Translations under genes and position numbers: made by a program | Shown: positions 36,208-62,362 of the stretch, in pieces | Layout: the number at the start of each line of letters is the position of its first letter | Position numbering within the stretch: the first letter of the stretch is position 1 | NCBI GenBank assembly: GCA_018003315.1 | Contig: JAGNEJ010000016.1 | Location: forward strand, 35-64,034 | Direction: 5' to 3' | From: Verrucomicrobiales bacterium | Lineage (GTDB): Bacteria > Verrucomicrobiota > Verrucomicrobiia > Verrucomicrobiales > V1-33 | Length of the DNA stretch: 64,000 nt | The notes under the pieces: model-generated | What the model was told of the DNA's origin: nothing | What the model saw: the letters and a program-made list of their open reading frames with translations, nothing else | Databases searched by the model: none

Positions 36208-36423
36208 TGATTCGGTTTGCGGTTTCCGTTCTGCGGTGCGTCAGGTTTGGCAAATACCGCCGACAATGCGGACCATGCCACACGCAGGAATATCACGTCC
36301 AGTCGCATTTCCCACACGGGTTTTCCGGAGTTGGAGAGGTAGTGGCAGAAGCAGGAATTCATGACTGGGGATGCCGACGGCGAAAATCCGCTCCAGCGCA
36401 ACCGCGCGCACCAGGGCTCCCAG

Positions 36424-36628
36424 CCGTCAAGAGACGGTTCTCCGATGCGCCGAAGCGAGGTAGGAAGCCGAACCCGCCGACACAACCCCAAACGAGGCGA
36501 TGACTCCAAAGTGGTCCGCACAGTCCCCTGTGCGGAATGCAGAAGCCCAGCGCAATGGCCTCCGCTCAGAGGACTGAGCGGTCCACGTTGCGGCCATCAA
36601 CCTGGCTGCTGGTGCGGCAAATCGCACC
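36424..36628 (+). other. cluster of four short perfect hairpins in the 585-nt region upstream of the M66 protease gene (possible structured leader or REP-like elements)
   Basis: CCGTC-aaga-GACGG (36424-36437). TCCGCACAG-tccc-CTGTGCGGA (36515-36536, 9 bp). CCGCTCAG-agga-CTGAGCGG (36562-36581, 8 bp). GGTGCG-gcaaat-CGCACC (36611-36628). The second and third share CCGCNCAG/CTGNGCGG arms. Strand of function is unknown. Confidence 0.3.
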
Positions 36629-36792
36629 GTGAGGGCCCACTTCGTCACTGGTCGCCAAAATGGGGCGATGGGTTGACAAAAGCCCTTTTCAACCGCTTGG
36701 GATGGCGTGATTTTGCAGGCAGGAATTGTCCGTCACGGAATTGCGCCCCTCGGACCATTGCACTCCATTTCATTTCAACTCATTTTCATGCC

Positions 36793-39222: not shown

Positions 39223-39262
39223 GTCTTCATTTTCCCGGCGCAGCCGGACACTGCAATCTCCC

Positions 39263-40360
39263 ATGAACGCGATCCCACGCCGGACTTTTCTGCAGAATGC
39301 CGCCGTTGCCACTGCGGGTTCCGTCATTGCGCCAACCTTTTGGACGCCGGGCGCGGCGACGCCATCCGAGCCTTCCGCAGCGAAACTTCCGCGCTGGCGC
39401 GGGTTTAACCTGCTGGAAAAATTCATCCAGCGCCGGGAGGGCAATCCGCCGTTTCGCGAGACCGATTTCCAGATGATGCAGGACTGGGGATTCGACTTTG
39501 CACGGCTGCCGATGTCCTATCAATGCTGGTCGTGGCCGGATCCTGCGCAGTGGCTTGAAATGGACGAGGCGCAGATTCAACATCTCGACCAGGCTGTGAA
39601 ACTCGGCCGCCGCCACGGCATTCACATCAACCTCAACCTGCATCGCGCACCGGGCTACTGCGTCAATCCGCCGAAGGAACCGCTGGATTTGTGGAAGGAT
39701 GCCGCGGCCCTCGACGCCAGCGCCCACCACTGGGCGACTCTGGCAAAACGCTTCAAGGGCGTGTCCAATCGCGAACTCAGTTTCGACCTGCTCAATGAAC
39801 CGGCGGACATTCCAGCGGAAACCTATGCCAGGGTGGTGCGGCATCTCGTTGCGGCCATCCGTGCAGAGGATTCGCAGCGACTCATCATTGCCGATGGCTT
39901 GAAATGGGGCCGGGACCCGGTGGAGGAACTCATTGGCTTGGGCGTCGCACAGAGCACGCGGGGATATGATCCGATGCGGGTCAGCCATCACCAGGCCAAC
40001 TGGATTCACGGCTCCGAAAAATGGGAGAGTCCTTCATGGCCGTTGCAGGAGGGCGATGGCGAATGGAACCGGGACCGCCTGCGCCGCGAACGCATCGCCC
40101 CCTGGCAGGCACTGGCAAAGCGTGGAGTGGGGGTGCATGTCGGCGAATGGGGTGCCCACAACCGCACGCCGCACGCCGTGGTGCTGGCCTGGATGCGCGA
40201 CCAACTGGCATTGTGGCAGGAAGCCGGGTGGGGCTGGGCGCTGTGGAATCTGCGCGGCAGTTTCGGCGTCCTCGACAGCGGACGCAGCGACGTGGTTTGC
40301 GAAGATTTTCATGGCCACAAGCTCGACCGGGCAATGCTCAAGCTGCTGCAGGCGGGCTGA
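39263..40360 (+). CDS. glycoside hydrolase family 5 (cellulase-like), TAT-signal
   Basis: Twin-arginine leader MNAIPRRTFLQNAAVATAGS. FDLLNEP (acid/base NEP) and VHVGEWG (nucleophile Glu) are GH5 clan GH-A signatures. Confidence 0.75.
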   Translation: MNAIPRRTFLQNAAVATAGSVIAPTFWTPGAATPSEPSAAKLPRWRGFNLLEKFIQRREGNPPFRETDFQMMQDWGFDFARLPMSYQCWSWPDPAQWLEMDEAQIQHLDQAVKLGRRHGIHINLNLHRAPGYCVNPPKEPLDLWKDAAALDASAHHWATLAKRFKGVSNRELSFDLLNEPADIPAETYARVVRHLVAAIRAEDSQRLIIADGLKWGRDPVEELIGLGVAQSTRGYDPMRVSHHQANWIHGSEKWESPSWPLQEGDGEWNRDRLRRERIAPWQALAKRGVGVHVGEWGAHNRTPHAVVLAWMRDQLALWQEAGWGWALWNLRGSFGVLDSGRSDVVCEDFHGHKLDRAMLKLLQAG

Positions 40361-40436: not shown

Positions 40437-41399
40437 TTACGGCGCAGGCTCGTCCGTTCCCCGTGTGGTCTTGGCGTGCAGGATGTCCTCACGGTCAAAC
40501 CACAGCGGGTCGAGGGCGAGGAACCGCCGCCAGCCGGGTTCCGCCGTTTGCTGCTGGTGGTAAATCATCCACAGTTTTCCATCCGGACCGGTGACGACGC
40601 AGTGATGTCCCGGTCCAAAAACGCCATTGCCGCGGTGGGCAATGGGATTGCCTGAGTATTTGGTGAATGGACCAAGCGGGGACTTCGCGGTGGCGTAACC
40701 AATGGCGTAGTCCGGGCCGTCCGCGCCGCTGCCGGAATACATGAGGTGGTAGATCCCCTTGTGCTTGAGCATCCAGGGACCTTCGGTGACTTCGCCTTTC
40801 CGGCGTTCCCAATCCACAGTAGGCCGGATGACTTCCCTGGCCTCGCCCTGTTTTGTCAGGGGATCGGCCATCGGCTGGACTTTGATTTTGAATCCGCCCT
40901 CCAGATCCACGTAGTAGAGAAACAGCGACCCGTTGTCGTCCCGGAACAAATGCGCATCAATGGCGTGGCTGGCCAGATTGCCGCGGTCCTTGAACGGCCC
41001 GAGTGGTCCGTCGGCCACCGCCACACCAATGACCTTGTTCAGGCCGCTTCGTTCGCCCGCGGCCCGGCTCACGGTGTAGTAGAGATAAAATTTCCGATCG
41101 CCAGTGGCATGGTAAAAGACATCCGGCGCCCAGGCCCCTCCGCGGGCATCGGTATAACACTTGGGCTTCTGCTCCCAGCGGATGAGGTCATCGGATACAA
41201 ACACGTCGTAGCCCCGTCCGTCGGTGGTCGGATACAGGTAGTAGCGTCCCTCATGAAGGAGAACGTGGGGATCCGCCGCACGAGTTTGGCCGAGGATCGG
41301 ATTGCGGTAGGTCCTTGCCGCAGGTTGCGCGGAGGCGGTCATGGCGCTCAGCATGGTTATGGCCAGGCTGAACACGGCGGAACGGATGGATGGATGCAT
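40437..41399 (-). CDS. glycoside hydrolase family 43 (arabinanase/xylosidase-like)
   Basis: Signal peptide, then YRNPILG..ADPHVLLHEGRYYLYPT (catalytic Asp), WAPDVFY, IDAHLFRDDNGSLFLYY and EGPWMLKHKGIYHLMYSG (catalytic Glu), the classic GH43 five-blade propeller motifs. Confidence 0.8.
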   Translation of the reverse strand: MHPSIRSAVFSLAITMLSAMTASAQPAARTYRNPILGQTRAADPHVLLHEGRYYLYPTTDGRGYDVFVSDDLIRWEQKPKCYTDARGGAWAPDVFYHATGDRKFYLYYTVSRAAGERSGLNKVIGVAVADGPLGPFKDRGNLASHAIDAHLFRDDNGSLFLYYVDLEGGFKIKVQPMADPLTKQGEAREVIRPTVDWERRKGEVTEGPWMLKHKGIYHLMYSGSGADGPDYAIGYATAKSPLGPFTKYSGNPIAHRGNGVFGPGHHCVVTGPDGKLWMIYHQQQTAEPGWRRFLALDPLWFDREDILHAKTTRGTDEPAP

Positions 41400-41411
41400 C
41401 AGGGGAGGTGG

Positions 41412-42806
41412 CTAGAGATTCCATCCCGTCCGGTAGTCGCGACGCAGGAACTTGTTTGCTTCCTCAGAGTTGGTAAAGCGCAGCGCTGCGGAGTCCCAGA
41501 GCAGCTTTTTGGTGGTCAATTCCTCGCGCATTCGCAGGCGCAGCGCCACGTTGCCCAGGAGCACCGTCTCCGTGAGCGGACCGGCCCAATCGAAGTGGGA
41601 ACCGGCAGCCGCTCCGCCCTTGCAGGCTTCGGCCCATTCTTTGTAATGACCAATCGAGCGCTCCAGCTTCCGCGGCGGAGCGCCATACTCCCGCATCCGT
41701 TTTTCCGGGATGAGGCTCCATTGCATTTTCTGGCTGAGGATTTTCCCCTTGTCGCCGACGAGCAGTGCGCCTGTGGCTCCCATTGTCCGCCCGTCCTCCA
41801 GCTCTTCGGGACGCTGCGGGCGAAGGCCACCGTCATGCCAGACCAGCTTCACCGGCGGAAGTTCGCCGCGCGCCGGAAATTGATAGGTGACCATCGATGC
41901 CAGCGGATAGGTCTCCTCGTTGACGCGGGTCGAACTGGCTTCCACGCTGGTCGGCGGGCCGAGTTTCAGCGCACGAAATATCGGGTCGAACGAATGGCAG
42001 CCGATGTCGCCCAGTGCGCCCGTTCCAAAATCCCACCAGCCGCGCCATTTGAAGGGCAGATAGGCCGGATGAAACGGCCGTTCCGGTGCCGGGCCGAGCC
42101 AGAGATTCCAATCCAGCGTCTGCGGTACGGGCGGCGTGTCGCTGGGGCGGGCGACACCCTGCGGCCAATACTCATTGAAGAGGCCATTGGACGGGCGATC
42201 GGTCCAGATGTGCGCTTCCCGCACCGGACCGATGGCTCCGTCCCACACCATTTCGCAGAGCAGTCGCGTGGCTTCGGTGGCTTGGCCCTGGTTCCCCATT
42301 TGCGTGGCCAGCTTGCGCTCGCGTGCCACGGTGGCGACCCGGCGCGCTTCCCAGACGGAGTGGGTGAGCGGCTTTTCGCAATAGACGTGCTTCCCCAACT
42401 GCAGCGCGGCCAGGGAAGCGAAGGCATGGACATGATCCGGCGTCGCCACGACCACGGCGTCGATGTCCTTCTGCTCGTCGAGCATCTTGCGGTAATCCTT
42501 CCACTGCCTGGCCTTCGGAAACCTGGCAAAAGTTCCTGCGGCGTACGTCCAGTCCACGTCGCAGAGCCCGACAATGTTATGATCCGGGAACTGGCTGATG
42601 TCGTGGCCGCCCTGACCGGCAACTCCAATGCCGGCAATGTTGAGTTTCTCACTGGGCGGAATGGCACCATTGAGCCCGAGCACCGATCCCGGTACGATTT
42701 GGAAGGACGCTGCGGATGCGGTGATGCCGCCCAAGAATCGGCGGCGGGAAAACGTCCGGGAGGATTCCGTGGCAGCTGAACGCGGCGAAGCACTGGCGGT
42801 ATTCAT
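41412..42806 (-). CDS. Gfo/Idh/MocA family oxidoreductase with twin-arginine signal
   Basis: TAT motif SRRRFLGGITASAA. Rossmann segment LNIAGIGVAGQGGHD. EKPL motif (CEKPLTH) typical of Gfo/Idh/MocA. Its start overlaps the upstream stop in ATGA. Confidence 0.8.
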   Translation of the reverse strand: MNTASASPRSAATESSRTFSRRRFLGGITASAASFQIVPGSVLGLNGAIPPSEKLNIAGIGVAGQGGHDISQFPDHNIVGLCDVDWTYAAGTFARFPKARQWKDYRKMLDEQKDIDAVVVATPDHVHAFASLAALQLGKHVYCEKPLTHSVWEARRVATVARERKLATQMGNQGQATEATRLLCEMVWDGAIGPVREAHIWTDRPSNGLFNEYWPQGVARPSDTPPVPQTLDWNLWLGPAPERPFHPAYLPFKWRGWWDFGTGALGDIGCHSFDPIFRALKLGPPTSVEASSTRVNEETYPLASMVTYQFPARGELPPVKLVWHDGGLRPQRPEELEDGRTMGATGALLVGDKGKILSQKMQWSLIPEKRMREYGAPPRKLERSIGHYKEWAEACKGGAAAGSHFDWAGPLTETVLLGNVALRLRMREELTTKKLLWDSAALRFTNSEEANKFLRRDYRTGWNL

Positions 42807-44020
42807 AGCTTGTATTCCGGGATTTTAAGCAGCTCGCCGTTTTTCAATGCCGACTGGTGCGCGACGATGCCGGAAACGGTCAGGTTCAGCGCCATCACAA
42901 TGTCCACGAGCGGTGCACGGTCCTGGAGAATGGCGGTGACAAACTCATTGGTTAGGTGCCCGTGCGATCCTCCGTGTCCCCCCGCGGAGATGCCCGGCGG
43001 AAGCGGCGGGCGTTTTGTGGACGGTAGGTTTTTTTCCAGCCCCTCGTATTTTCCGTAAAAGGAACCGCGCTGGCCGCGGATGCGACCCATTTCGCCGCCA
43101 ACGCCGGGTGTGTCCCAACTGACGGCCATGCGCGACATGCCGCCTTCGCTGGTGCGGAAGAGCGCAATTTCGGTGCCGAATGGGTTTTGGTACCGGTTGT
43201 TAGGTGCCTGCAGGTGATGGATGCGGCTGGGCATGCCCATGCAGGACACCTCAGTGAATCGCCCGCCGGTCACGCCGCAGTAGTAGGCGTTGGAGTGGGT
43301 GGGGTACCACTGCGGCGGCAGTCCGACGCGCCAGTCCTTGTAGGAGTCGAGCGGGTGGTCCATGTAGTGGTAGTATTCGCCTTCTGAATACACGAGCTGG
43401 TCGAAGCCTCCGGCTCGGTAAATCTGTCTCATCGCGGTGAGATCTTCGTGATAACATGAGGTTTCGAACATCATGTATTTCCGTCCGCTCGTCTTGACCG
43501 CTGCGAGCAAGTGATCGGCTTCTTCCAGTGATCCAAACACTGCCGGCACCGCCGAGGCCACGTGCTTGCCGTGCTTCAGCACTTCAATGCAGTGGCGGGC
43601 GTGGCTGGGGGCATCCGTGGCGACGAAGATGGCCTCGATGCGGTCGTCCTTCACCATTTCCTCCAATGACGGATAGGTCTTGCTGCAGCCGGTGACTTTC
43701 GCGAGTTCAGCGCACCGGTCGGGAAGCAGATCGCTGACGGCGGTCACCTCGACATTCGGATGGTTCTGGAATCCGAAGGCGGCGGAAAATTTGCAGACGC
43801 CGTATCCGACGAGGCCCACGCGAATTTTCCGGTCGGAAACCGGCTGCCAGTCTTTCGAGGCATCGGGAGAATCCGGAACCTGCTCGAAACCCTGAATTGG
43901 CTTTTCCGCACCGGGTGTGGTCGATGGAAGGCCAAGCGCCGCTGCGCTGATTCCGGCAGCCTGCAGAAACGATCGGCGGCTGAATGAGGGCGGGGAATGG
44001 GGTGCGGACGGCTCTTTCAT
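42803..44020 (-). CDS. Gfo/Idh/MocA family oxidoreductase with twin-arginine signal
   Basis: TAT motif SRRSFLQAAGISAAALG. Rossmann segment IRVGLVGYGVCKF. Size and composition fit the family. ATGA overlaps at both ends. Confidence 0.8.
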   Translation of the reverse strand: MKEPSAPHSPPSFSRRSFLQAAGISAAALGLPSTTPGAEKPIQGFEQVPDSPDASKDWQPVSDRKIRVGLVGYGVCKFSAAFGFQNHPNVEVTAVSDLLPDRCAELAKVTGCSKTYPSLEEMVKDDRIEAIFVATDAPSHARHCIEVLKHGKHVASAVPAVFGSLEEADHLLAAVKTSGRKYMMFETSCYHEDLTAMRQIYRAGGFDQLVYSEGEYYHYMDHPLDSYKDWRVGLPPQWYPTHSNAYYCGVTGGRFTEVSCMGMPSRIHHLQAPNNRYQNPFGTEIALFRTSEGGMSRMAVSWDTPGVGGEMGRIRGQRGSFYGKYEGLEKNLPSTKRPPLPPGISAGGHGGSHGHLTNEFVTAILQDRAPLVDIVMALNLTVSGIVAHQSALKNGELLKIPEYKL

Positions 44021-45519
44021 GGCGCGGTTTGGGTGGGCTGGTTGTTGTCAGGAGCGTTTTTGTCAGGACTGCGTGGTTTCGCTTCACCAAACGCATAAAT
44101 CAGGCTCCGGGTGCGCACATACAGCTTGTTGTCCGCAATGGCGGGGGTGGCTAGGACGGGCTCGTTGAGCGGATTGCGCGCCAGAACTTCGAGGGTGTCT
44201 CCGGCACGATAGACGACCACTACGCCGGGCTGCGAGGCGACGCAGATTTTTCCAGATGCGGCCACGGGGGAGCAGTAGTAGTCGCCCAGTGCGTCGAGCC
44301 GTTCGTCCCGGTAGTGATAGTCGCCCGTCCGCGCGTCGAGGCATGAGGCCATTCCACCGTTTCGAACCAAATAGAGACGGCCATTAAAAAACAACGGCGA
44401 AGGCACGTAGGGCAGGCCCCGTGTCGCGGTCCAGACGACGTGCGTATCGGTGACGTCGCCGTGGCCATCAGGCCGCACCGCAAGCGCCACGTTTTTTGCT
44501 TCGTCAAAAACGCGGACGATGTCGGCGTATTCCTCCCGGGTGATGCGTCCGTTTTTGTCAGCGTCGATGTAGAGGAAGTGCTGTTTGGCCGGGCCGCCAG
44601 TGGCCTCATTCTGCGCAAGCTGGCCGTCCTTGTTGGCATCGCCCTGCTCCAGCAGCCGGTCGAAGGCGGGCATCCGGCTCACGCCTGATCCGTAGGTCCA
44701 CCCTGCGACGAAAATCATACCGTCCCCGGAAACCGGCGAAGAAACCATTTCATTGGGCAGTCCGCGCACCGTCCAGCGTTCGCTGCCGTTGTTCAGACCA
44801 TAGGAAACCAGGCGCAGACTGCCGGGCACAATAATCTGTTCCGGCTTCTCCGGCGGCCACGGTAGCGGCGTCGAAAATCCACGGTGAAACCCCGGCCGTT
44901 CGGTTTGCCACACGGTTTGACCGTTGCGCTTGTTCACCGCCAACAAATGGGAGCCGACATCCTGGTCGCGATTCAGGATCAACAAATCCCCCGCCAGCAC
45001 CGGCGAGGTGCCGGCCCCATGCTGCGTGACCGGGATGGGCAGCGGCTTTCGCCACAGCTCCACGCCTTCAAAATCATACGCCGCGAGCCCGAACGAGCCG
45101 AAATAGACGCACACCCGTTCGCCATCCGTCGCCGTCGTGGCCGTGGCCGGATGGCTCAGCGGCGCACCGCGTTCGATGCTGCCTGGCTCGATGTGACGCC
45201 GCCACAGCACCCGGCCGTCGTTTCGGTCGAGGCAGAGGGTTTCCAGCTTTCCTTCGGAAAATCCTGTCAGGAAAATCTTCCCATTCCAGATGCAGGGCGA
45301 CGAATGGCCTTCGGGCGCAGCGGTTTTCCAGACGACATTGTTGTCAGGACCAAAATGGGTTGGAAAATCGCCGGACCCAATACCGGAACCTCCCGGCCCT
45401 CGGAACTGCGGCCAGCGCGCCCCGATTTCATCGGCAGCCAGCGCGGTCTGACTGGCAGAAAATGCCGCCATGATCAATGCCCAGGCGGACAGGAGTTTCG
45501 GGTAATGCCGCAAAATCAT
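44017..45519 (-). CDS. PQQ-like (BamB/YVTN-type) beta-propeller protein with inserted EF-hand pair
   Basis: The ATG at 45519 gives signal peptide MILRHYPKLLSAWALIMAAFSASQTALA. Repeated VW/LW propeller blades. Two EF-hand loops, DANKDGQLAQNE and DADKNGRITREE. Confidence 0.65.
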   Translation of the reverse strand: MILRHYPKLLSAWALIMAAFSASQTALAADEIGARWPQFRGPGGSGIGSGDFPTHFGPDNNVVWKTAAPEGHSSPCIWNGKIFLTGFSEGKLETLCLDRNDGRVLWRRHIEPGSIERGAPLSHPATATTATDGERVCVYFGSFGLAAYDFEGVELWRKPLPIPVTQHGAGTSPVLAGDLLILNRDQDVGSHLLAVNKRNGQTVWQTERPGFHRGFSTPLPWPPEKPEQIIVPGSLRLVSYGLNNGSERWTVRGLPNEMVSSPVSGDGMIFVAGWTYGSGVSRMPAFDRLLEQGDANKDGQLAQNEATGGPAKQHFLYIDADKNGRITREEYADIVRVFDEAKNVALAVRPDGHGDVTDTHVVWTATRGLPYVPSPLFFNGRLYLVRNGGMASCLDARTGDYHYRDERLDALGDYYCSPVAASGKICVASQPGVVVVYRAGDTLEVLARNPLNEPVLATPAIADNKLYVRTRSLIYAFGEAKPRSPDKNAPDNNQPTQTAP

Positions 45520-45529
45520 GTGTGGAGAA

Positions 45530-48500
45530 TCATTGTTGGGGAGGAGCGGACACCGCTTCCCGTCCCGACTCCAAAAAGGCCAGCAGATCCAGGATCTCAT
45601 CCTGCGTCAGCAGGTTCAGCAGACCGCCGGGCATCGGTGAAACGGGCGACGGCTCGATGCTCACCACGTCCTTTCGGTCCACGGTCACGGTAGCCGCGGG
45701 ATTGAACATGTCCGGATTGACCATCACCGAATCATTGTTCGTATGATAGACGATGCGCCCGACCAGCTTTTCATGGTTGCGGCGCGTGATGATGATGTTG
45801 CCGTAGAGGTCGCTCACGGTTTTGCTCGGTTCCAGAATGGATTCCAGCATTTCTCGTCGGCTGAAGCGCCCGGCCAGTTGCGTGAGGTCCGGCCCGACAG
45901 CGCCACCTTCTCCGGCAAAGCGATGGCATTGAAAACAGCCGGTGGCGCCAAACATCCGCCTCCCGCGTTCCAGGTCTCGCTTTCCGCGGTCAGCCTGGAG
46001 CGCGGGAGCCAGCTTCTCAACGGTCCATTCCGTGAAGCTGGTTCGCTTGGCCAGTGCCGCTCCAAAGGAGGCCAGGGGAGATTCCGGCGGCGGCGCTTCG
46101 AGGATGCTCTTGAGCGCAGCCCGTTCCGCTTCCGTGAGGGTGGCCAGCGCGTCGGTTTTGATCATGTTGACGAAGCCCGTGAAACTGGCTCCTCCGCGAT
46201 ATCCCGCAGCGCGGTTGAACCAGGTGAAGTATTCTGAGCGTAGTTCCGGTGTCCATCCGACGCGCAGCATCCGGAGGGACTTGATGTAGTCGAGTTGTTC
46301 CTCCTGCGTGGGCGCGGAGCGGATCAGCGGCAACGCCAGACTGGCAATGCGCGGTGACTGGAGATGGACCAGCATCTGGCACAGTTCGCTGTTGAGCGCC
46401 CGGTTGCCTGCGGGAAACCACGGTTCCATTTGTGCCGCCAACCGCGCCCGTGCCGCCTCGTCCGGATGTCCCAGTCGTGTAAAACAAAGCGTGAAGGCAC
46501 GCAACAATGCCAGTCTCTGTTCCGTCGCGAGCTGAGACCACTGCAGTTCACCGAGTGAGGAAAGCACGCGCCCTGACAATTCTGGATCCGGTTTTGGATC
46601 GTCCGGTTTGCGGTGGAATTCGTCCTTGGCACTGACCCGCACCAGGGCCAGCAGCGCTTCGAGCCGCCGGGTGGGATCCTTTTCTGTCAGTGCCTGGTTG
46701 CGCCACTGCGCCGGATCCTGCCATTCCAGAGCCACGCGGGCGGCGAAACGCAGAAAGCGGTCACTGCTCCCGAGATGGGGCCAAAGCGATGCGACCGCGG
46801 CCGGATCGCGCCGCCCGTGAAAGGATTCCAGCATCCGCCGGGTTGCACGCGGATCATCTGCTGGTTCCGCCTCTGGCTTTGTGTCACCGGATTTGTCACC
46901 CGTCCAGGTTACGCGATACAGCCCAGTCTGAATCCGCCAGCCACCGGTGATGAAATAGAGTGCGCCGTCGGTTGGATGCGCCACGAGATCCACCACTGGC
47001 AGCGGCACGCCGGAGAGAAACACCTCATCCTCACCGCGGCAGGCCGCACCAGCCGGATGCAGATGCACCGCATGGACGCGCCCGAACGTCCAGTCTGCCG
47101 CGAAAAGCGCTTCGCGGTAGCGCTGGGGAAACTTGGTTCCGTAACCGAATGTCACGCCGGTTGGGGAGCCAGGGCCGAGATTGAGAATGCCCGGCAGGCT
47201 GTCCGGCTGATAAGCGGGCCATTTTCCGGCACCGTTGCGCCAGCCGAATTCGGCACCGCTGGTTACCTGACAAATCCGCGTCGGACGATACCACGGCGTG
47301 CCCAGGTCCCACTCCATGTCCGCGTCATAAGTGAAGAGATCGCCATGCCGGTCGAAGGCCGCGTCATAGGTATTGCGGAATCCGTTGGCAAACATCTCCC
47401 AGTCGCGTCCGTCGGGGCTGACGCGGTAAATCACACCGCCGGGTGCCAGCACGCCCCGCATGTGTCCGCCGGCATCCGGCAGGCGGGGCAGCAGGTGGTC
47501 CTCGCTCCAGTGCGGCGGAACCTTTGAACTCGCGAGCTGGGGAGGATGCGTGTTGTTGCCGGCGACGACGCAGAGCGACTTGCCATCCGGCCAGGGCAGC
47601 ACGCCGTGCCATCCGTGGTCGCCGCCGCCCTCCAGCGGGTGCAGCAATTCCGTTTTGTCAGGAATTCCGTCGGAATTGGTGTCACGCACCCGGTAGAGGC
47701 CGCTCGCCGACCGGGCATTTTTTGTCACCAATGCGTAAAGGCTGTCGAACGCCCAGCACAGACCCTGGGCGCTGCTCAGTTCCACCGGCAGTTTCTCGAC
47801 GTGGATCGCATTGGTGGCGTCTCCTGCCGCCGGCAGGGTGATGCGAACGAGACCTTCATCGTATTGCCCGCTGGCAAACAAGTGTCCTTGGGGATCTGCG
47901 CACAGGCTGACCCAGGAACCCTCCGTTTCCTTGAGCGGCGAGTAGAGCAGATCGACTTTGAAACCCGGCGGCACCGTGATTTTTTCCGGTGGCAGCGCCG
48001 CTGCGGTTGGGGCGAGCTGCTTCATGCGCAGGTTCCGAAACTGCACCTTCATGGGCGGTCCCGGGTGCATTTGCAGTCCAATCAGCCCGCTGGCGGCGGC
48101 TCGTCCTTTTTGCCGGTCCACGGCGTGGGCTGTCTTCACGTCATTGATGAAAAGCTGAATCTCCGGACCCTGTGCCACCACGCGGTATGCATTCCAGTCC
48201 TGGGCGTGGATGTGCTGCTGCAGTGCCGCCGCATCCGCGAAGCGCTCCACCTTGCGATGGCCGTCGGGTGCGATGGTCACCTTTTCACCGCGCAAGGCCA
48301 CGCCACCGCGCTCATGTTCAAAGAGCGCTCCGGTCCACTGCTTGCCGTCCTCAATGTCCGCCTGGTAGCCGCGCATGTCCCAGTCCGGCACCTCACGGCT
48401 GCGAATCTGCACGCCGGAATTGCCGCCAGTGATGCGATATTCAAAACGCAGTTCGAAATCGCCTGGTTCACCGCCGCGCCAGATGAGATAATTGTGTTTG

Positions 48501-48745
48501 TCGCAGGGTTTATCCGGCGTGCTCTCTGCCGTGATCGTGCCGTCTTCAACGCGCCACCAGCCCGGTTTGCCGTCCCAGCCGGTCAGGTCGCGTCCGTTGA
48601 AGAGTGGCGTGAATCCGTCGTCGGCGGCGCGGGAAGCTGCACTGAATACCGCCACCGTCGCAACTTGGGCAAGCAGCTTGGCCAATTTTGCTGCCAACGG
48701 GAGACGGGAAAGGCATTTCGGGGAGATCAGGAGCGGAGGTTTCAT
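45530..48745 (-). CDS. DUF1080 (3-keto-disaccharide hydrolase-like) + PVC-type membrane-bound dehydrogenase propeller + HEAT + c-type heme-binding (CxxCH) domain protein
   Basis: The N-terminal FTPLFNGRDLTGWDGKPGWWRVEDGTITA is the DUF1080 hallmark. The central region is glucose/sorbosone-dehydrogenase-like. The C-terminal GCFQCHRF heme motif sits in the Pirellula/Verrucomicrobium-type heme-binding domain (TIGR02603/02604 architecture). Confidence 0.8.
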   Translation of the reverse strand: MKPPLLISPKCLSRLPLAAKLAKLLAQVATVAVFSAASRAADDGFTPLFNGRDLTGWDGKPGWWRVEDGTITAESTPDKPCDKHNYLIWRGGEPGDFELRFEYRITGGNSGVQIRSREVPDWDMRGYQADIEDGKQWTGALFEHERGGVALRGEKVTIAPDGHRKVERFADAAALQQHIHAQDWNAYRVVAQGPEIQLFINDVKTAHAVDRQKGRAAASGLIGLQMHPGPPMKVQFRNLRMKQLAPTAAALPPEKITVPPGFKVDLLYSPLKETEGSWVSLCADPQGHLFASGQYDEGLVRITLPAAGDATNAIHVEKLPVELSSAQGLCWAFDSLYALVTKNARSASGLYRVRDTNSDGIPDKTELLHPLEGGGDHGWHGVLPWPDGKSLCVVAGNNTHPPQLASSKVPPHWSEDHLLPRLPDAGGHMRGVLAPGGVIYRVSPDGRDWEMFANGFRNTYDAAFDRHGDLFTYDADMEWDLGTPWYRPTRICQVTSGAEFGWRNGAGKWPAYQPDSLPGILNLGPGSPTGVTFGYGTKFPQRYREALFAADWTFGRVHAVHLHPAGAACRGEDEVFLSGVPLPVVDLVAHPTDGALYFITGGWRIQTGLYRVTWTGDKSGDTKPEAEPADDPRATRRMLESFHGRRDPAAVASLWPHLGSSDRFLRFAARVALEWQDPAQWRNQALTEKDPTRRLEALLALVRVSAKDEFHRKPDDPKPDPELSGRVLSSLGELQWSQLATEQRLALLRAFTLCFTRLGHPDEAARARLAAQMEPWFPAGNRALNSELCQMLVHLQSPRIASLALPLIRSAPTQEEQLDYIKSLRMLRVGWTPELRSEYFTWFNRAAGYRGGASFTGFVNMIKTDALATLTEAERAALKSILEAPPPESPLASFGAALAKRTSFTEWTVEKLAPALQADRGKRDLERGRRMFGATGCFQCHRFAGEGGAVGPDLTQLAGRFSRREMLESILEPSKTVSDLYGNIIITRRNHEKLVGRIVYHTNNDSVMVNPDMFNPAATVTVDRKDVVSIEPSPVSPMPGGLLNLLTQDEILDLLAFLESGREAVSAPPQQ

Positions 48746-51321
48746 GGATTGATAGGTATGACGCTCAGCGTGCGGCGTTCTCCGGCAGCCAGCGAAAGCC
48801 TGAGACCCTCTGCCAGCTCCTCGCCGCCAACCTGAGAGTGGCCGGCGGCCTCTTGCAGTTCGTAGCGCTTGGAGTTTTCCACCGGAAACCATTCCGGGAA
48901 TTCATTGAGGCGTGGGTAGTTCGTTGGCAGGCGCAGGGTGAGGCGGTGGCGCGGAGTGTCGAAGCGCAGCCGCCCTTTCCACGGCTTTTCAGCGGTGAGA
49001 GCGACGTGCAGCGTGTTGCCTTCGCGCAGCGCACTGAGCCGCAGATCTGTACGCCACGGGTGGCAGCTTGCGCCCTGGGTAAAATACAGCGCTGCCATCA
49101 GCGCGGTGCGGGCGTAATTGCCGTCGCCATACCAGCCTTCCACAATGCCGTCATCCCGCTGCTTGCCGAGGAACAGCGGCAGCATCTTGTTCAACCAAGC
49201 AAACCCTGCCGGTTCCGGCACGCGATTGAGCAGGAGCAGCGATCCTTCGATGGCATCTGCATAGGCATCGGCGTCGCTCCAGTGAAGATAGCGCGGCTGG
49301 TCAATGTGCTGCAGTGCGTGGCGGACTGCATTCAGAAGCACGGTGTCGCCCGTCGCCGTGCCGAACGTGTGCATGGCCGCGAGGGCGTAGCCCCAAGTGT
49401 CCGGTGTCTCGCGATTGAGGACTTTTCCGGTCGAGGCTTCCACGAGGTTGCACCACAAGCCGTCCTCGTTGCGCGCCTTGTCGAACAGGCGGTGAAACAT
49501 TTCGCGCAGCGGCTTTTCATACAGCGCGGCTTTCTCTGCATGGAAGTGCCTGGCGGCCACGAACAACTCTGCCAGACCGCCGATGAGTTCGTTGCCGTGA
49601 TCGTTGAGATTGAGGGTGTCGTTGATGGCGCGGTGTGTGGTGAAATCCCACCGGTGCGGGGGAAGGCCGCCGTTTTTGGGCAGGACTTCGAGGCAGTAGG
49701 CATCGCCGATTCGTTCGGCCCACTCCAGATATTTCGCATTGCGCGTCACCGCGTGGAGCCGCGCCAGGGCTTGGAGCAGGTCGCCGTTGACCTCGGTGTC
49801 ATCCGCCGGCAGCAGGCCGAAATCGGACTTCACGGCAGCCTGTGCGAAGATGGCATCCATCAGTTCCACCATGCGGTCGAACCAGGGACCGCGGCCCAGC
49901 ACCTCGGTCATCGGAATGAGGCCGTCCTTGCAATACTCCGCCGCGTTGAAGGTGAGGCGGGCGGGATTGGGCTCCACATGGGCGAATGTGCGAGTGGCAA
50001 GCGAGAACCAGTCGGGCAACCCAGCGTGGCGCGTGGTCAGCGTGCGTTCCTTGGGGATGATGTCGAGAATTTCCGGCAGCCGATCCGGCGCAAGGAAATG
50101 TGCGGTGATTGCCAGGAAGGGAAACATGTCAGCTGCGTTGTCCTGGGGCGCCCACACGGGCTGGTCGAGCCGCCGCGGATACAGCCCGGTCGCCGCATCG
50201 CGGGTCTTCCACCAACCGTCCAGCACTCCGAGCGCACGGGTGAAGCAGCGGCGGGCAATTTCTCCGCGGCGGTCCAGTTCGTTCACGGTAGTGGCTGCGG
50301 ACAGGGGGCTTGCACCCTCAGTGCCAGGATTTCGGCCCGGAGTTTGTCCGGCGTCGGACCACGGCCAGGGTGTTCCCAGTTGTTCCTGCAGCGGTGCCCA
50401 GAAGTCGCGTCCGACAAAAACGTGTCCGTTGGGATGAATGGTTAGTTGAGCCTTTGCTTCTGCTCCAAACACGCGATAGGCCCGGCGGATCTCCTCGAAT
50501 GCTCCGCGTCCGATGTTGACGGGAAATCCTCCCGGTGCGCGTTCCTTTTCGCCCAATTCCAACACCAGCGGACGCGGTGCCACGCAGGAAAAGATGTCGG
50601 AGAAATCGAAATTCTCCTCCAGTCCAGGAAAGTTGAAACAGGTGCAATGTCCATTTTTCATGTTAGCCACCGTGGTCAACCAACCGCTGCTGCACGAGGT
50701 CCTGATGCGTTCGTCCAGCGCCGCGACATACATCGTCGTTTCGCCGCCCAGCGAAAGGCCGGCGACGGCAAGGCGGTTGGGGTCCACCTCGGGCCGGGTC
50801 TCTAGGTAATCCAGACAGCGCAAGGCATCCCAGGTGCGTTCGCCCATCAGCGTCCAGTTCGCGTGCTGCAGATCGTGCTGGCCCACGTCCGGTGCGATGA
50901 CGACGTAGCCCATTTCCGCCAGAGCGCGGCCATACCAGTAAAGGCTCAGTCCACGCACCACTTCCTCGCCAGTGCCGCCGTGGCCGTGGATGGCCAGCAC
51001 TGCGCCAACCTTGCCGTGCGGTTGTTTCGGCATCGCCATCCACCCATGCGTCCGACGATCGGGCAGCGATTGCAGGGTGAATTCCTCCAGCACGCAGCCG
51101 CCCGCGGGCATCTCGATGCGTTGAATGACCTCCGGCCGCAGTGGCACGCGCTCTGGTTTCGCGCCGCCCATGAGCAATTGGAACAGTTTGGCGCGGGTCG
51201 CCTGCTGCCATTGTTTCGCCTCGGGCGCATTGGCCGTGCGAAATGACAGGGCCGGTGCGTCGGCATTGGCTAGAAACGCAGTGCAGAGGAATGCCAGGAT
51301 GAAGGCGCGATGGTGCTGCAT
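48742..51321 (-). CDS. alpha/beta hydrolase (acetyl-xylan-esterase / dienelactone-hydrolase-like) fused to (alpha/alpha)6-barrel glycosidase-like domain
   Basis: The ATG at 51321 gives signal peptide MQHHRAFILAFLCTAFLANA. HGHGG oxyanion-like motif and GLSLGG nucleophile elbow. The C-terminal ~550 aa is helical-repeat rich (six-hairpin-like). Its stop overlaps the next start in ATGA. Confidence 0.6.
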   Translation of the reverse strand: MQHHRAFILAFLCTAFLANADAPALSFRTANAPEAKQWQQATRAKLFQLLMGGAKPERVPLRPEVIQRIEMPAGGCVLEEFTLQSLPDRRTHGWMAMPKQPHGKVGAVLAIHGHGGTGEEVVRGLSLYWYGRALAEMGYVVIAPDVGQHDLQHANWTLMGERTWDALRCLDYLETRPEVDPNRLAVAGLSLGGETTMYVAALDERIRTSCSSGWLTTVANMKNGHCTCFNFPGLEENFDFSDIFSCVAPRPLVLELGEKERAPGGFPVNIGRGAFEEIRRAYRVFGAEAKAQLTIHPNGHVFVGRDFWAPLQEQLGTPWPWSDAGQTPGRNPGTEGASPLSAATTVNELDRRGEIARRCFTRALGVLDGWWKTRDAATGLYPRRLDQPVWAPQDNAADMFPFLAITAHFLAPDRLPEILDIIPKERTLTTRHAGLPDWFSLATRTFAHVEPNPARLTFNAAEYCKDGLIPMTEVLGRGPWFDRMVELMDAIFAQAAVKSDFGLLPADDTEVNGDLLQALARLHAVTRNAKYLEWAERIGDAYCLEVLPKNGGLPPHRWDFTTHRAINDTLNLNDHGNELIGGLAELFVAARHFHAEKAALYEKPLREMFHRLFDKARNEDGLWCNLVEASTGKVLNRETPDTWGYALAAMHTFGTATGDTVLLNAVRHALQHIDQPRYLHWSDADAYADAIEGSLLLLNRVPEPAGFAWLNKMLPLFLGKQRDDGIVEGWYGDGNYARTALMAALYFTQGASCHPWRTDLRLSALREGNTLHVALTAEKPWKGRLRFDTPRHRLTLRLPTNYPRLNEFPEWFPVENSKRYELQEAAGHSQVGGEELAEGLRLSLAAGERRTLSVIPINP

Positions 51322-51562
51322 GGGCTTGAATGGGCAATGAAGTGAAGGTGATTCTCTCGCCACCGTTCCTCACGGGTTCAACTCCCGCACTTGCTGTGGA
51401 CGGTGAGACTCCGTTCATGCGTGGCGCATGAGGATGGCCCGGCCCCGCACGAGTCACCATCGCTCGGATGGGCCGCAGCAAAGTACCCCTGGACCATTTG
51501 TGCCGGGGAATTTGCTTGAGTCTGGCAGGATGCGGCGGGCAGCAGACTGGGCATGGCTTGCT

Positions 51563-54184
51563 TTATCGGGTTGGTGATCCTCCGGCGGACGGTGCCGTTC
51601 CGGGCTGGTGCCAGAGTGATTTCCAGTAGTCCTGCTCAATGGCGTAAACGTCGGTGACTTCCTCGGGCTTCACGCATTGCGGAACCATGCCGTAGCGTTT
51701 CATCTCACGGAACCAGTCGGTGCGCGGGACGAAGCCGGTCATGTCGAATCGCTTGTTGCGTTCGAGGAAATCACGACCGGCCGCGATCATGCCGAGGATG
51801 GCTTGATAGCCGGGATCGGCGATGGACCCGAAGACGGCCGCAGCATCGCCGGTGGCCGGTTTCCCGCAGAGATTCCACCCGCCCGCTTCCGTTGCCAGTG
51901 GTGCCAGGAGCATCAGGGACTTCTCCGGCTGCGACAGATTGAAGACGATATGGCGGCTGGTGAGCAGTCGCGGGTCGTCGAGACTGGGCTGCCAGAAACT
52001 CACTCCGCGTTCGTCGGCTACGGTGAGCGGCAGGCGTCGGCTCGGCTTGTTGTGGCAGCCGACGCAGCGTTCCTGAATCACTTTCGCAGCGGCGGTGGTC
52101 TGCGGCGAATCTGCTCCGGTGTTGACCTGGTTGTTCTCGGCGTAATTGCCGATCATCCCGCAGCCGAGCGCGGCATAGGTGCCGGGATAGGCTGCGCCGG
52201 TTTCGATCCAGAGGCGGAGCAGCTTCTTCTGATGTTCGCTCGCCTGCACGCCGTGGTGCGTGCCGTCGAGCATGGTGAGCAGCCTGCTGGCGCTGCTGCC
52301 GAGAGCACGCGGATCGTAATTGCTCTTCGGCTGGTTGCGTCCGTCGGCAAAGAGTCGTGCGATCGTCAGCATGTAGTAGCTGTGGCTGAACACCGGTCCG
52401 CGATCTCCGGTGAGCAGTAGTCGTCCGGCGCGCGGACCGCCCCGCGCGGTCTTCTCGTAGCTGTGGCAGTCGCCGCAGAGGGTTGTCAGCACAGGCTGCA
52501 CGTCGCGTGGGAAATCGATCACGTCTGGCACGTCACGCACCGGTTCGATTTTTGCCGGTGCTTTCCGCACGGCGAGCGTGGTGTGGAAATCTGTGCGTGG
52601 CGTTTGCGAACGATGCTCGTGGCAGCCAACGCAGCTCAACGTTTCCCCCGGCTGCACACTGGTGAAACTCTGCATGCGCTTCACGGCCATGTCCCGCTCG
52701 TCCAGCGCGACGAAGAACACGCTGCGCAGCGCGGGCACCTCGAAGTAGGCGCTGCCATCCTGCTCGACCGGCACGGTGCCGAGAATCCGCTCCAGCGTGA
52801 ACGTGCCGCCGTAGCTGATGGGTTCCATGCCGCCGGTGTAGTGGACGGGCATCGGCAGCGTTTCGAGCACGAGCAGTTTCTTGATGTCTCCCGCCTTCAC
52901 GCCGGTCATGTTCCGTCCGTGGTTCACGTCGGCGAGCACCATTCGCCCAGTGGTCTCCGTGGGCTTTACGCGCTGTTGGAGGACCGGTTCGCGGGGACGC
53001 GGCGTGAAGGGCCTTGGTTCGTGACATTCGAGTTTCGCAGCGAGATCGGCGGCGGGCAGTTTGAGAATTTCCTCCGTGCGGCCGGTGCCATCCATCACCA
53101 CGAGCGAGGTGTGTGCCGCGGCCAGAAAACAATTCTCGGTAAACGCCCACGGATCGCGGAAGTGCGCGCCTTTGCTGATGCTGCGGGCAAACTCCTTTGC
53201 GTCTGGGCCGCCTTTGGGATCGACCACGGTCACCACGCCATCGTGTTCGCGCTGGCCGTGGCCGGGGCTGAAACTGGCGACAATCCTGTCCGTTCCGGGG
53301 ATGGGCCTGGCGTCAATCATGGTGATGCCGGGATGAAGATTTCCAAACCAGGTCATTTGCGAAGTTCCGTCGGGATTCATGGCCCAGAGATGATGGAAAT
53401 GAACCTGGCTGCGGTCCACGTATTCCCAGCGGGTGTAGAGGATGCGCCCGTCGGGCAGCGGCCACGGCGTGTTGTCGTGCTCGTTATTGCTGGAGAGCAC
53501 CCGAATGTTGGCACCGTCAGCATCGCAGCGGTGGAGCACCGCGACCTGCGTCAGCCAGCAGTTCACCCAGCGCTTGCAGCGGCTGGAGACGAATACAATT
53601 CCGCCGTCAGGAAGGTAGCTGGCCTCGATGTCGTCAAACGGACCGGACGTCAATTGGCGGAGCCCAGGCGGCGGAAGCGGGGGATTGGGGGCGTCTTTCG
53701 CATCCCGTCCGACGGTTTGTTCCGTTAGAGGCAGTTCGTAAAGATGATAGTGTTCCGTCCCGCCGGGCCGGTAGCTGAAAAGCACCTGCTTCCCATCGTA
53801 ACTCACCTGCGGATCGCGCACCCCGCCGCGCGGATCGTCGAGCAGCGCCGTCAACGCGCGGGTGCGCAGGTTGAGCTTGTAGAGCTTGGCGCCTTCGACC
53901 CAGGCTTTGCGGTTTGGATCGTGCGAGTAATAACCAAAATTTGCATACCAATGGCCGTCGGTGGGATTCACTCCCCGTGCGGCGAAGACCACTTCCTCGA
54001 CATCACGCATCGGACCGGAGAGAAATTCCTTCAGAAGTCCTCCCTCACCAGGCGGGGGCGGTGCCGCTGGCGCAGCACGCCCTGGCGTCGTCAGGAACAG
54101 CAGCAGTGCGGGGAGCAGCGCCAGGAGTCCGCTCACGAACGGCTCCCGAAAAATGGTGGTGCGGTGGAGTCCGGAGAGTTGCAT
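51563..54184 (-). CDS. HzsA-related PD40/TolB-like beta-propeller protein with three CxxCH heme motifs
   Basis: Signal/TM segment GLLALLPALLLFLTTPG. PD40-like VSYDGKQVLFSY. Three c-type heme motifs are read directly: CVGCHEH, CGDCHSY and CVGCHNK. Confidence 0.55.
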   Translation of the reverse strand: MQLSGLHRTTIFREPFVSGLLALLPALLLFLTTPGRAAPAAPPPPGEGGLLKEFLSGPMRDVEEVVFAARGVNPTDGHWYANFGYYSHDPNRKAWVEGAKLYKLNLRTRALTALLDDPRGGVRDPQVSYDGKQVLFSYRPGGTEHYHLYELPLTEQTVGRDAKDAPNPPLPPPGLRQLTSGPFDDIEASYLPDGGIVFVSSRCKRWVNCWLTQVAVLHRCDADGANIRVLSSNNEHDNTPWPLPDGRILYTRWEYVDRSQVHFHHLWAMNPDGTSQMTWFGNLHPGITMIDARPIPGTDRIVASFSPGHGQREHDGVVTVVDPKGGPDAKEFARSISKGAHFRDPWAFTENCFLAAAHTSLVVMDGTGRTEEILKLPAADLAAKLECHEPRPFTPRPREPVLQQRVKPTETTGRMVLADVNHGRNMTGVKAGDIKKLLVLETLPMPVHYTGGMEPISYGGTFTLERILGTVPVEQDGSAYFEVPALRSVFFVALDERDMAVKRMQSFTSVQPGETLSCVGCHEHRSQTPRTDFHTTLAVRKAPAKIEPVRDVPDVIDFPRDVQPVLTTLCGDCHSYEKTARGGPRAGRLLLTGDRGPVFSHSYYMLTIARLFADGRNQPKSNYDPRALGSSASRLLTMLDGTHHGVQASEHQKKLLRLWIETGAAYPGTYAALGCGMIGNYAENNQVNTGADSPQTTAAAKVIQERCVGCHNKPSRRLPLTVADERGVSFWQPSLDDPRLLTSRHIVFNLSQPEKSLMLLAPLATEAGGWNLCGKPATGDAAAVFGSIADPGYQAILGMIAAGRDFLERNKRFDMTGFVPRTDWFREMKRYGMVPQCVKPEEVTDVYAIEQDYWKSLWHQPGTAPSAGGSPTR

Positions 54185-54286
54185 AAGCGAGCCGATGCGA
54201 CGGCGGGATTACGTGACACTGAAAAGGCGCGCCAACATTTGACCTGTATCAAGCTTCGCTCGCAATGTGCGGTGTTAGACTTACGC

Positions 54287-62209: not shown

Positions 62210-62362
62210 GGGTGATTGGGTGTGGGTTGCGGTGATGCTGAGGAGGTTCGGCGGATTGCCTGCCGTCCGGACGGCAAAAACCATGCTGGGATGAGGTGAA
62301 AGGTAAAGGAAAATTGAGCGGACCGCCCAGTGGCCGGCGAACCACGCGGAGGAGGGGAAGCA

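Follow-up and report, generated by a model that had tools for sequence, protein, structure and literature searches.

Can a bacterium tie the cleavage of glycosides through 3-keto intermediates to its respiratory chain? The question is raised by a cluster of minus-strand genes in a 64,000-nucleotide (nt) stretch of DNA from a soil-type Verrucomicrobiales bacterium (GenBank assembly GCA_018003315.1, contig JAGNEJ010000016.1, positions 35 to 64,034), which we call the window and to which coordinates refer unless another contig is named. The window is contig C29 of a 5.1-Mb metagenome-assembled genome (MAG) that is 96% complete and whose closest public relatives are Pedosphaera/Limisphaerales-type Verrucomicrobiota. 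The oxidation-elimination-hydration route of glycoside cleavage was worked out between 2021 and 2024 in anaerobic gut Bacteroidota, where re-oxidation of the tightly bound NAD is rate-limiting and unexplained (PMC8121099; bioRxiv 10.1101/2024.03.25.586180). An earlier note on this DNA, made from the sequence alone, had read the cluster as a six-gene operon and a candidate system in which exported sugar-oxidising enzymes are wired to a c-type cytochrome. Our analysis tentatively suggests a modified picture, in which the cluster could plausibly be an operon of exported enzymes with 3-keto-type chemistry that finishes plant- or microbe-derived oligosaccharides in the periplasm, with its tie to respiration at the level of the sugar product.

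The genes are labelled in transcription order as U1 (upstream), P1 (esterase), P2 (DUF1080/heme fusion), P3 (propeller), P4 and P5 (both Gfo/Idh/MocA) and P6 (GH43), and are laid out as follows (aa, amino acids; Tat, twin-arginine translocation; sGDH, soluble glucose dehydrogenase).

U1, 51563..54184, minus strand: exported 873-aa HZS-alpha-like tri-heme protein, the first gene of the block conserved in relatives
U1-P1 spacer, 51322..51562, minus strand: 241 nt; in relatives, 21 nt lie between U1 and P2
P1, 48742..51321, minus strand: Sec-exported esterase with an all-alpha domain and a beta-sandwich
P2, 45530..48745, minus strand: 1071-aa fusion of DUF1080, sGDH-like propeller, HEAT repeats and heme c
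P3, 44017..45519, minus strand: Sec-exported BamB/PQQ_2-like propeller with an EF-hand pair
P4, 42803..44020, minus strand: Tat-exported (RRSFL) divergent Gfo/Idh/MocA protein with GH109-like motifs
P5, 41412..42806, minus strand: Tat-exported (RRRFL) glycoside 3-dehydrogenase of the AL3/BT2158 family
P6, 40437..41399, minus strand: Sec-exported GH43 glycoside hydrolase

The six open reading frames (ORFs) P1-P6 together span 40437-51321. ATGA start/stop overlaps join P1 to P2 (48742-48745), P3 to P4 (44017-44020) and P4 to P5 (42803-42806), P2 and P3 are separated by 10 nt (TTCTCCACAC), and P5 and P6 by 12 nt. The sequence thus confirms the six minus-strand genes, three overlaps and two short gaps of the earlier note, and scans of the six products against Pfam and NCBIfam found its domain calls to be essentially right. 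Its suggestion of export by Tat and Sec signals also agrees with the sequences of all the products, with Tat motifs in P4 and P5 and Sec-type signal peptides in the remaining proteins. A promoter and terminator scan of the U1-P1 spacer returned nothing above shuffled sequences, using a consensus that is not valid for this phylum.

To establish which of these genes belong together, we examined synteny in a search anchored on P5 across 185,579 species genomes, with further assemblies reached through P2 orthologues. The P5-anchored search returned only two loci in which P2-P4 adjoin P5 (L003 and L004) and a third with P2 but without P3 and P4 (L010). The gene order U1-P2-P3-P4-P5 is present in L003, L004, L134/L135 and L163-L165. 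U1 ends 21 nt ahead of P2 in the called genes of L134, L163, L164 and L165 and in the ORF list of L004, and tblastn places the U1 match approximately 90 nt before the P2 match in L003 and L004. The next three junctions of the block are 4-nt overlaps in L134, L163 and L164 (gene calls) and in L004 (ORF list); L165 retains the first two, after which its contig ends. Block order and overlaps persist while the flanks differ between relatives. GH43 directly follows P5 in L134, lies beyond a single inserted 1431-aa gene in L163 and L164 (a shift of about 5 kb in L163), and is found approximately 5 kb downstream, beyond two opposite-strand ORFs, in L004.

P1 is missing between U1 and P2 in every relative that has the block, and proteins of its two-domain type are widespread as stand-alone proteins, which indicates that P1 is a lineage-specific insertion. 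The evolutionary unit is therefore U1-P2-P3-P4-P5, usually accompanied by GH43, and the six-gene boundary drawn previously is slightly wrong, as U1 belongs inside it and P1 outside. Gene order in relatives, which the earlier note had named as a check, is kept for U1-P2-P3-P4-P5 in close relatives, but the six-gene order including P1 is found in none. The same note had counted a TIM-barrel protein, placed at 61346-62209, as a partner of the system. We rejected this gene (61346-62284): it has no signal peptide and so is probably cytoplasmic, it is 10 kb distant with unrelated genes in between, and relatives do not have it near the block.

The gene product that gives the block its 3-keto character is P5. 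It matches NCBIfam NF058561 (the BT_2158 family of glycoside 3-dehydrogenases) with 498.6 bits (E 1.7e-149) over model positions 1-437 of 487, whereas its other NCBIfam matches do not exceed 62 bits. The score is below the equivalog cut-off of 750 bits, making P5 a clear family-level homologue. Among solved structures it is closest to AL3 of Alistipes (8TDF, E 1.1e-111; 8TDH, 1e-109), with approximately 55% identity over 400 residues. Five of the six substrate- and NAD-pocket residues of AL3 are retained in the 8TDF alignment (Q161, R192, W195, D248 and H252 in AL3 numbering); the sixth, Y349, is aligned with a Trp of P5 in a gapped region, and P5 has a 7-residue insert between the R and W positions. 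The twin-arginine motif, SRRRFLGG, can be read at residues 20-27. P5 is the best of 31 NF058561 matches in the genome, about 17 of which cover at least 250 model positions. Together, these similarities strongly support P5 as an AL3/BT2158-family glycoside 3-dehydrogenase, for which oxidation at C3 is predicted.

P4, the second Tat-exported Gfo/Idh/MocA protein (by Pfam; motif RRSFL), is of a different kind. The solved structures that match it best are those of GH109 NAD-dependent glycosidases (2IXA, E 1.3e-12; 6T2B, 3.8e-8), although the similarity is low and mainly in the Rossmann half. In the aligned motifs, AVP replaces EKP, and the equivalents of GH109 E149, Y179 and H181 are kept along with a C-terminal GHGG. 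We take these three residues to be catalytic in GH109. Its sequence suggests that P4 works as a GH109-type enzyme complete in itself, not as a dehydrogenase, and it does not resemble BT2159. The earlier claim that both Gfo/Idh/MocA proteins oxidise sugars is therefore supported for P5, which belongs to a characterised family, but not for P4. P4 is unusually conserved, with more than 120 protein clusters at least 76% identical to it, whereas orthologues of P2 and P3 that close are few. Its orthologues occur in varied contexts of carbohydrate-active enzymes (CAZymes). In L138 a P4 orthologue (80% identity) lies 3 kb from a P2 orthologue, and in L139 one is followed by an Abhydrolase_7 esterase.

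P2 carries a heme c domain. Its AlphaFold2 (AF2) model, built with 40 homologues (pLDDT 83, pTM 0.73), together with fold and profile searches, resolves it into the following parts.

P2 DUF1080 jelly roll, 48011-48616, minus strand: from Pfam, AF2 and Foldseek
P2 sGDH-like six-bladed propeller, 46901-47962, minus strand: from AF2 and Foldseek
P2 HEAT repeats, 46046-46858, minus strand: from AF2
P2 heme c domain with a beta 'nose', 45566-45976, minus strand: from NCBIfam, AF2 and a profile match
P2 CFQCH (residues 937-941), 45923-45937, minus strand: sequence motif
P2 candidate distal Met1038, 45623-45640, minus strand: invariant in homologues

The DUF1080 domain matches PF06439 with 136.3 bits (gathering cut-off 26.8) and has fold matches in Foldseek to 4JQT (1.5e-12), 8TDA (3.6e-8) and 9FBE (3.7e-8). 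Among the six BT2 channel residues (E103, N134, E164, Q166, Q273 and H275), N134, Q273 and H275 have equivalents in P2 (N109, Q225 and H227) that are invariant in its homologues. The heme domain matches TIGR02603 (84.7 bits, cut-off 68.15), both CFQCH and M1038 are invariant in the 40 homologues, and a profile match (7ZS0, E 4.5e-21) makes the domain a homologue of the C-terminal part of Kustd1711, a His/Met, Ca-tuned cytochrome with a potential of +355 mV (PMC11791136). The invariant ligands and the homology to a high-potential cytochrome argue for electron transfer by the P2 heme.

The best fold matches of the propeller are soluble aldose/glucose dehydrogenases that depend on pyrroloquinoline quinone (PQQ) (Foldseek, probability 1.00), namely 3DAS (E 4.8e-11; target-normalised TM-score, TMt, 0.66), 2ISM (TMt 0.69-0.70) and 1CQ1 (3.8e-10). 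The fold search reached sGDH where a profile search of PDB sequences with P2 did not. A local hhalign comparison of P2 with the genome's own GSDH protein gave a probability of 59-70% (E 4e-5 to 9e-5). It pairs GDH377GWH of P2 with NHHGG of GSDH and GFR457N458 with GIRN, and both sites are invariant in the 40 P2 homologues. The HHGG His and the R-N of GIRN are presumably the catalytic His and the PQQ-binding motif of sGDH. Some P2 paralogues match Pfam GSDH directly. P2 is one of 22 TIGR02603 paralogues in the genome, and its architecture is found in thousands of proteins of the Planctomycetota-Verrucomicrobiota-Chlamydiota (PVC) group. P2 has no match to DUF7133 even at E values up to 10, while 14 of the 15 paralogues scanned do. 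As the heme sits behind a PQQ-sGDH-like propeller, the propeller is a more economical source of electrons than the NAD-bound Gfo enzymes, and the heme most simply serves P2's own dehydrogenase-like propeller. The genome encodes five COX1 homologues.

Upstream of P2, U1 combines a PD40-like propeller region with an HZS-alpha middle domain (PF18582, E 1.7e-21) and has three CxxCH motifs (CVGCH 518-522, CGDCH 570-574 and CVGCH 707-711). Three U1-like (HZS-alpha-like) genes stand in tandem elsewhere in the genome (C55:3624-12954). L134 has other proteins in which HZS-alpha is joined to F5/8-type C (CBM32-like) and FGE-sulfatase domains, which suggests that the HZS-alpha-like family acts on glycans.

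P3 is a BamB-like propeller (Pfam PQQ_2, E 1.1e-19) with two EF loops that are kept in 11 orthologues and paralogues.

P3 EF loop 1, 44605-44640, minus strand: DANKDGQLAQNE, residues 294-305, canonical 12-residue loop
P3 EF loop 2, 44530-44565, minus strand: DADKNGRITREE, residues 319-330, canonical 12-residue loop

P3 is probably a Ca-dependent scaffold or binding protein. We considered and rejected a PQQ alcohol-dehydrogenase-type enzyme, for which there is a fragmentary PF01011 match (E 0.003); the PDB matches are to BamB. A PADLOC scan of P3 was empty. One in-frame stop (TGA, TAG or TAA) lies within the majority of the top P3 matches in other genomes, probably because the alignments overrun the true start into the upstream gene.

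The remaining two products would trim the substrate. P6 is a GH43 protein (PF04616, 184.3 bits against a gathering cut-off of 32.2). P1 has an esterase domain at approximately residues 30-325 (Pfam Abhydrolase_7/AXE1) with a GLSLG nucleophile motif at 188-192, and its AF2 model (pLDDT 92.8) shows an all-alpha region of about 14 helices (342-747) followed by a beta-sandwich (752-856). Foldseek returned matches to the esterase domain only (3NUZ, BT1017 and CE15 esterases), and the C-terminal region has only sub-threshold Pfam matches to GH76 and GH127. The (alpha/alpha)6 assignment of the earlier note thus rests on secondary structure and these sub-threshold matches, and is plausible rather than proven, while its esterase call holds.

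We combined the observed gene order, family memberships, conserved residues, folds and synteny into a candidate sequence of events, from which we infer the substrates, every catalytic step, the propeller cofactor and all electron transfer, with the electron link taken from gene context. P6 and P1, the latter with its esterase and helical barrel, would trim and de-esterify the substrate. P5, with its tightly bound NAD, would then oxidise the non-reducing-end sugar at C3, and the 3-keto-glycoside would be cleaved by elimination and hydration, for which the candidate catalyst is the DUF1080 domain of P2 or an unlinked classical DUF1080 protein. P4 probably carries out oxidation, elimination, hydration and reduction in one active site, on another sugar. 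The PQQ-sGDH-like propeller of P2 would oxidise the released sugar or keto-sugar and pass electrons into its own His/Met heme c, from where they would travel, perhaps via the tri-heme U1 and soluble carriers, to one of the five heme-copper oxidases (cytochrome c oxidases). Respiration would thus be reached through the sugar product and not through direct transfer from NADH to heme.

Several observations weigh against this sequence of events. The DUF1080 domain of P2 belongs to a variant subfamily with Q-A-D (GYQADIE; Q-x-D) where BT2157-type lyases carry E-x-Q, the classical motif that we take to be BT2 E164/Q166, and it could be a binding module, since paralogues of P2 carry NPCBM or Laminin-G at that position. 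The 3-keto chemistry that the earlier note assigned to DUF1080 has the expected PF06439 domain, fused to heme c, but in a variant form; the Q-x-D position is shared with domain 1 of BT3469 and domain 1 of planctomycete TIM+DUF1080+DUF1080 proteins. The isolated propeller and HEAT regions have no Pfam match, including to GSDH (PF07995), and the TIGR02604 match of P2 (64.5 bits, E 1.1e-17) is below the cut-off of 122.2. No pqqC was found in the 96% complete MAG, and no pqqE above cut-off; the pqqC control gave no signal anywhere and was uninformative. E. coli, among other bacteria, uses PQQ supplied from outside. A single TIGR02604 protein has been assayed biochemically, and it was reported to be a lactose hydrolase and not a dehydrogenase (PMC5342196). 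The block is confined to one narrow clade: P2-P5 linkage exists only where P2 is approximately 75% identical or more, and P2 orthologues at 74, 73, 71, 71 and 63% identity stand alone or in other contexts. With P3 as the anchor, 150 genomes of the order yielded homologues of at most 47% identity in unrelated contexts with no partners within 9 kb, and a metagenome scan with the same anchor gave a single, irrelevant match. Genome-wide, the 22 TIGR02603 heme genes and 31 BT2158-like matches form two pairs within 7 kb, against about 1.9 expected by chance.

The same clade restriction and chance-level proximity bear on an explanation closer to the earlier note, in which the bound NADH of P5, P4 or both is re-oxidised by P2, through its propeller cofactor and heme c, and by the tri-heme U1, so that C3 oxidation is net oxidative and feeds the respiratory chain as in LacABC. 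Re-oxidation of AL3/BT2158 enzymes is rate-limiting in vitro, and the authors of that work suggest cytochromes as possible partners (bioRxiv 10.1101/2024.03.25.586180). Four hemes, in U1 and P2, are encoded just upstream of the two Tat NAD enzymes, and the overlaps have been kept while the flanks changed. In addition, ThuA, the partner of the Gfo-type 3-ketoglycoside dehydrogenase ThuB, is fused to two paralogous propeller-heme proteins, and also to a P2-type DUF1080 domain beside a Tat Gfo gene. However, in the literature that we searched we found no case of enzyme-bound NADH passing hydride to a c heme other than through a flavin or quinone, and most P2 orthologues are solitary. We regard direct wiring as unlikely. 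What stands of the earlier note's proposal is the heme c domain fused within P2; the link from Gfo enzyme to cytochrome comes from gene context in a narrow clade.

Redox coupling may also be lacking altogether, a possibility that we consider doubtful but slightly more credible. The products would then be independent periplasmic CAZymes on a shared substrate, with P5 redox-neutral and re-oxidised by the 3-keto-sugar product as in Bacteroides, and P2 a 'TIGR02604 beta-propeller glycosidase' with a carbohydrate-binding DUF1080 domain and a heme that is structural, sensing or unrelated. A Km of 1.8 mM for lactose hydrolysis was measured with a purified TIGR02604-HEAT-cytochrome c protein (PMC5342196), planctomycete genome papers count TIGR02604, DUF1080 and PF01408 among the putative but unclassified glycoside hydrolases (PMC5352709, PMC7397252), and the published default for AL3 is that 3-ketoglucose recycles it in vivo. 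Both GH43 and the esterase belong to the classical CAZymes, and P2 paralogues hold CBM-like modules in the place of DUF1080. This explanation sits poorly with the invariant CxxCH and distal Met and with the homology of the heme domain to a bona fide cytochrome, and the P2 propeller resembles dehydrogenases and not the known glycosidase propellers. It is much less probable that the substrate is something other than a glycan, with both Gfo/Idh/MocA proteins and P2 working on cyclitols, pseudo-sugars or glycosylated natural products (inositols, aminocyclitols, C- or S-glycosides) and with GH43 and the esterase as hitch-hikers. Inositol and levoglucosan dehydrogenases are among the weaker NCBIfam matches of P4 and P5, thioglycosides and acarbose are further substrates of AL3/BT2158 enzymes, P1 was inserted recently, and some relatives have GH43 in a displaced position; but no other family matches P5 nearly as well as the glycoside 3-dehydrogenases, every relative has GH43 next to the block or close by, and GH5 and M66 genes flank the locus.

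Outside this block, the components of the proposed 3-keto chemistry recur in other combinations. In 22 of the 80 P5-anchored loci, a P5 homologue has within 10 kb a DUF1080 domain of the P2 type, with GYQ-x-D/E where classical domains carry E-x-Q. Seven Planctomycetota loci (L008, L009, L016, L017, L040, L058 and L069) have tandem arrays of three to eight P5 paralogues that share 25-69% identity with P5. After the arrays come proteins in which a P2-type and a classical DUF1080 domain are combined; judged from the sequence by eye, the joined protein of L017 has an N-terminal extension resembling a xylose-isomerase-type TIM barrel. Several of these Planctomycetota loci also have a P4-like gene approximately 9 kb downstream. 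A P2 orthologue is followed by DUF1080 in L137 and heads a row of DUF1080, GH27/NPCBM and a P4 orthologue in L138, while L144 groups a TIM barrel with a Gfo enzyme and a P1 orthologue. In the genome itself, a TIM barrel gene precedes a P2 paralogue on C76, and C66:2542-11385 (L154) encodes a CBM32-like protein, a DUF1080+ThuA fusion, a Tat Gfo/Idh/MocA protein, a PSCyt1/PSCyt2/PSD1 protein and a DUF1501 protein, making it a second candidate oxidative module. ThuA is found on two of the genome's 22 heme proteins, and in others the same propeller-HEAT-heme chassis bears DUF1080, NPCBM, Laminin-G, GDSL-lipase or ceramidase-like modules. This variety suggests a modular redox cassette that has repeatedly recruited modules known from 3-keto-glycoside metabolism.

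Three groups of genes surround the block on the opposite strand. Converging on the 3' end of the operon are genes for a GH5 protein and for a metalloprotease of the M66/StcE type that has TagA and StcE beta-sandwich domains (36361-40360, plus strand), a hint of a mucin- or glycoprotein-directed neighbourhood. An FkbO/Hyg5-like chorismatase plus RidA gene (53744-55657, plus strand) is divergent from U1, a pairing kept in L134, L136, L163 and L164, where a Gfo/Idh/MocA-like gene of approximately 445 aa is often next. Further away (57614-60205, plus strand) is a gene whose 863-aa product has a metallohydrolase domain of the CehA/McbA family (256 bits) and no Pfam match.

The closest described system is the 3-keto-glycoside pathway of BT2156-BT2160 in Bacteroides thetaiotaomicron and AL1-AL5 in Alistipes (PMC8121099; bioRxiv 10.1101/2024.03.25.586180). 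The operon resembles it in having a close AL3/BT2158 homologue with a Tat signal, a DUF1080 domain and a periplasmic location. Unlike that pathway, it has no BT2156-type TIM-barrel lyase, its DUF1080 domain is a Q-x-D variant on a propeller-HEAT-heme c chassis (compare BT2157/AL2), and its second Gfo protein is Tat-exported and GH109-like, whereas BT2159/AL4 is cytosolic. It also adds a tri-heme protein and an EF-hand propeller, in a host that is aerobic with cytochrome c oxidases. P4 shares with GH109 (2IXA, 6T2B) a Tat signal, loss of the EKP lysine (E-V-S/P in GH109, A-V-P in P4), the E149/Y179/H181 equivalents and a C-terminal GHGG...L.N.FV, but the similarity (E 1e-12) is mainly in the Rossmann half.

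P2 has the propeller-HEAT-cytochrome c chassis of the PVC-type heme-binding CxxCH proteins (TIGR02604/TIGR02603; DUF7133), including Lac161_ORF7 (AGW45552; PMC5342196), but differs from them in its divergent propeller and N-terminal DUF1080 domain, and members of this family do not usually share an operon with Gfo/Idh/MocA enzymes. With sGDH/Asd (1CQ1, 3DAS, 2ISM) it shares a six-bladed propeller in which a candidate catalytic His and the R-N motif align; unlike sGDH it has no Pfam GSDH match, and PQQ is its candidate cofactor. The fungal AA12-AA8 pyranose dehydrogenase CcPDH is likewise a propeller fused to a cytochrome domain and a carbohydrate-recognising module, although its cytochrome is b-type and that of P2 is c-type. 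Glucoside 3-dehydrogenases of the FAD type that have a cytochrome c subunit (LacABC of Caulobacter; G3DH of Agrobacterium) have also been described together with DUF1080 (PMC9007349). The overall logic is similar, with periplasmic C3 oxidation of glycosides linked to cytochrome c and then cleavage by DUF1080, but the dehydrogenases are not homologous, the oxidant of our operon being an NAD-bound Gfo/Idh/MocA enzyme. Neither U1 nor any of the six products has a Pfam match to a flavoprotein dehydrogenase.

The novelty of the locus lies in its specific, tightly overlapped combination of a bona fide AL3/BT2158 homologue with a GH109-like enzyme, an EF-hand propeller, a DUF1080-sGDH-heme fusion and a tri-heme HZS-alpha-like protein. 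An AL3/BT2158 homologue encoded in an overlapped operon with a heme protein and a tri-heme protein is a compact, testable candidate for a respiration-linked 3-keto pathway, although the arrangement is clade-restricted, which limits its significance. In a stronger form, which we consider improbable, U1-P2-P3-P4-P5 would be a periplasmic respiratory glycoside-oxidising assembly, in which P2 re-oxidises the fixed-NAD Tat enzymes directly or via a keto-sugar shuttle and U1 relays the electrons to cytochrome c oxidase. If this were true, non-Koshland glycoside cleavage would become energy-conserving, and the question of how AL3/BT2158-type enzymes are recycled in aerobes would be answered. PVC bacteria have huge, uncharacterised expansions of the Tat Gfo/Idh/MocA, DUF1080 and propeller-HEAT-heme c families. 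For the TIGR02604/DUF7133 family, our analysis offers the working hypothesis that its members may be sugar dehydrogenases with built-in cytochromes and interchangeable sugar-handling modules.

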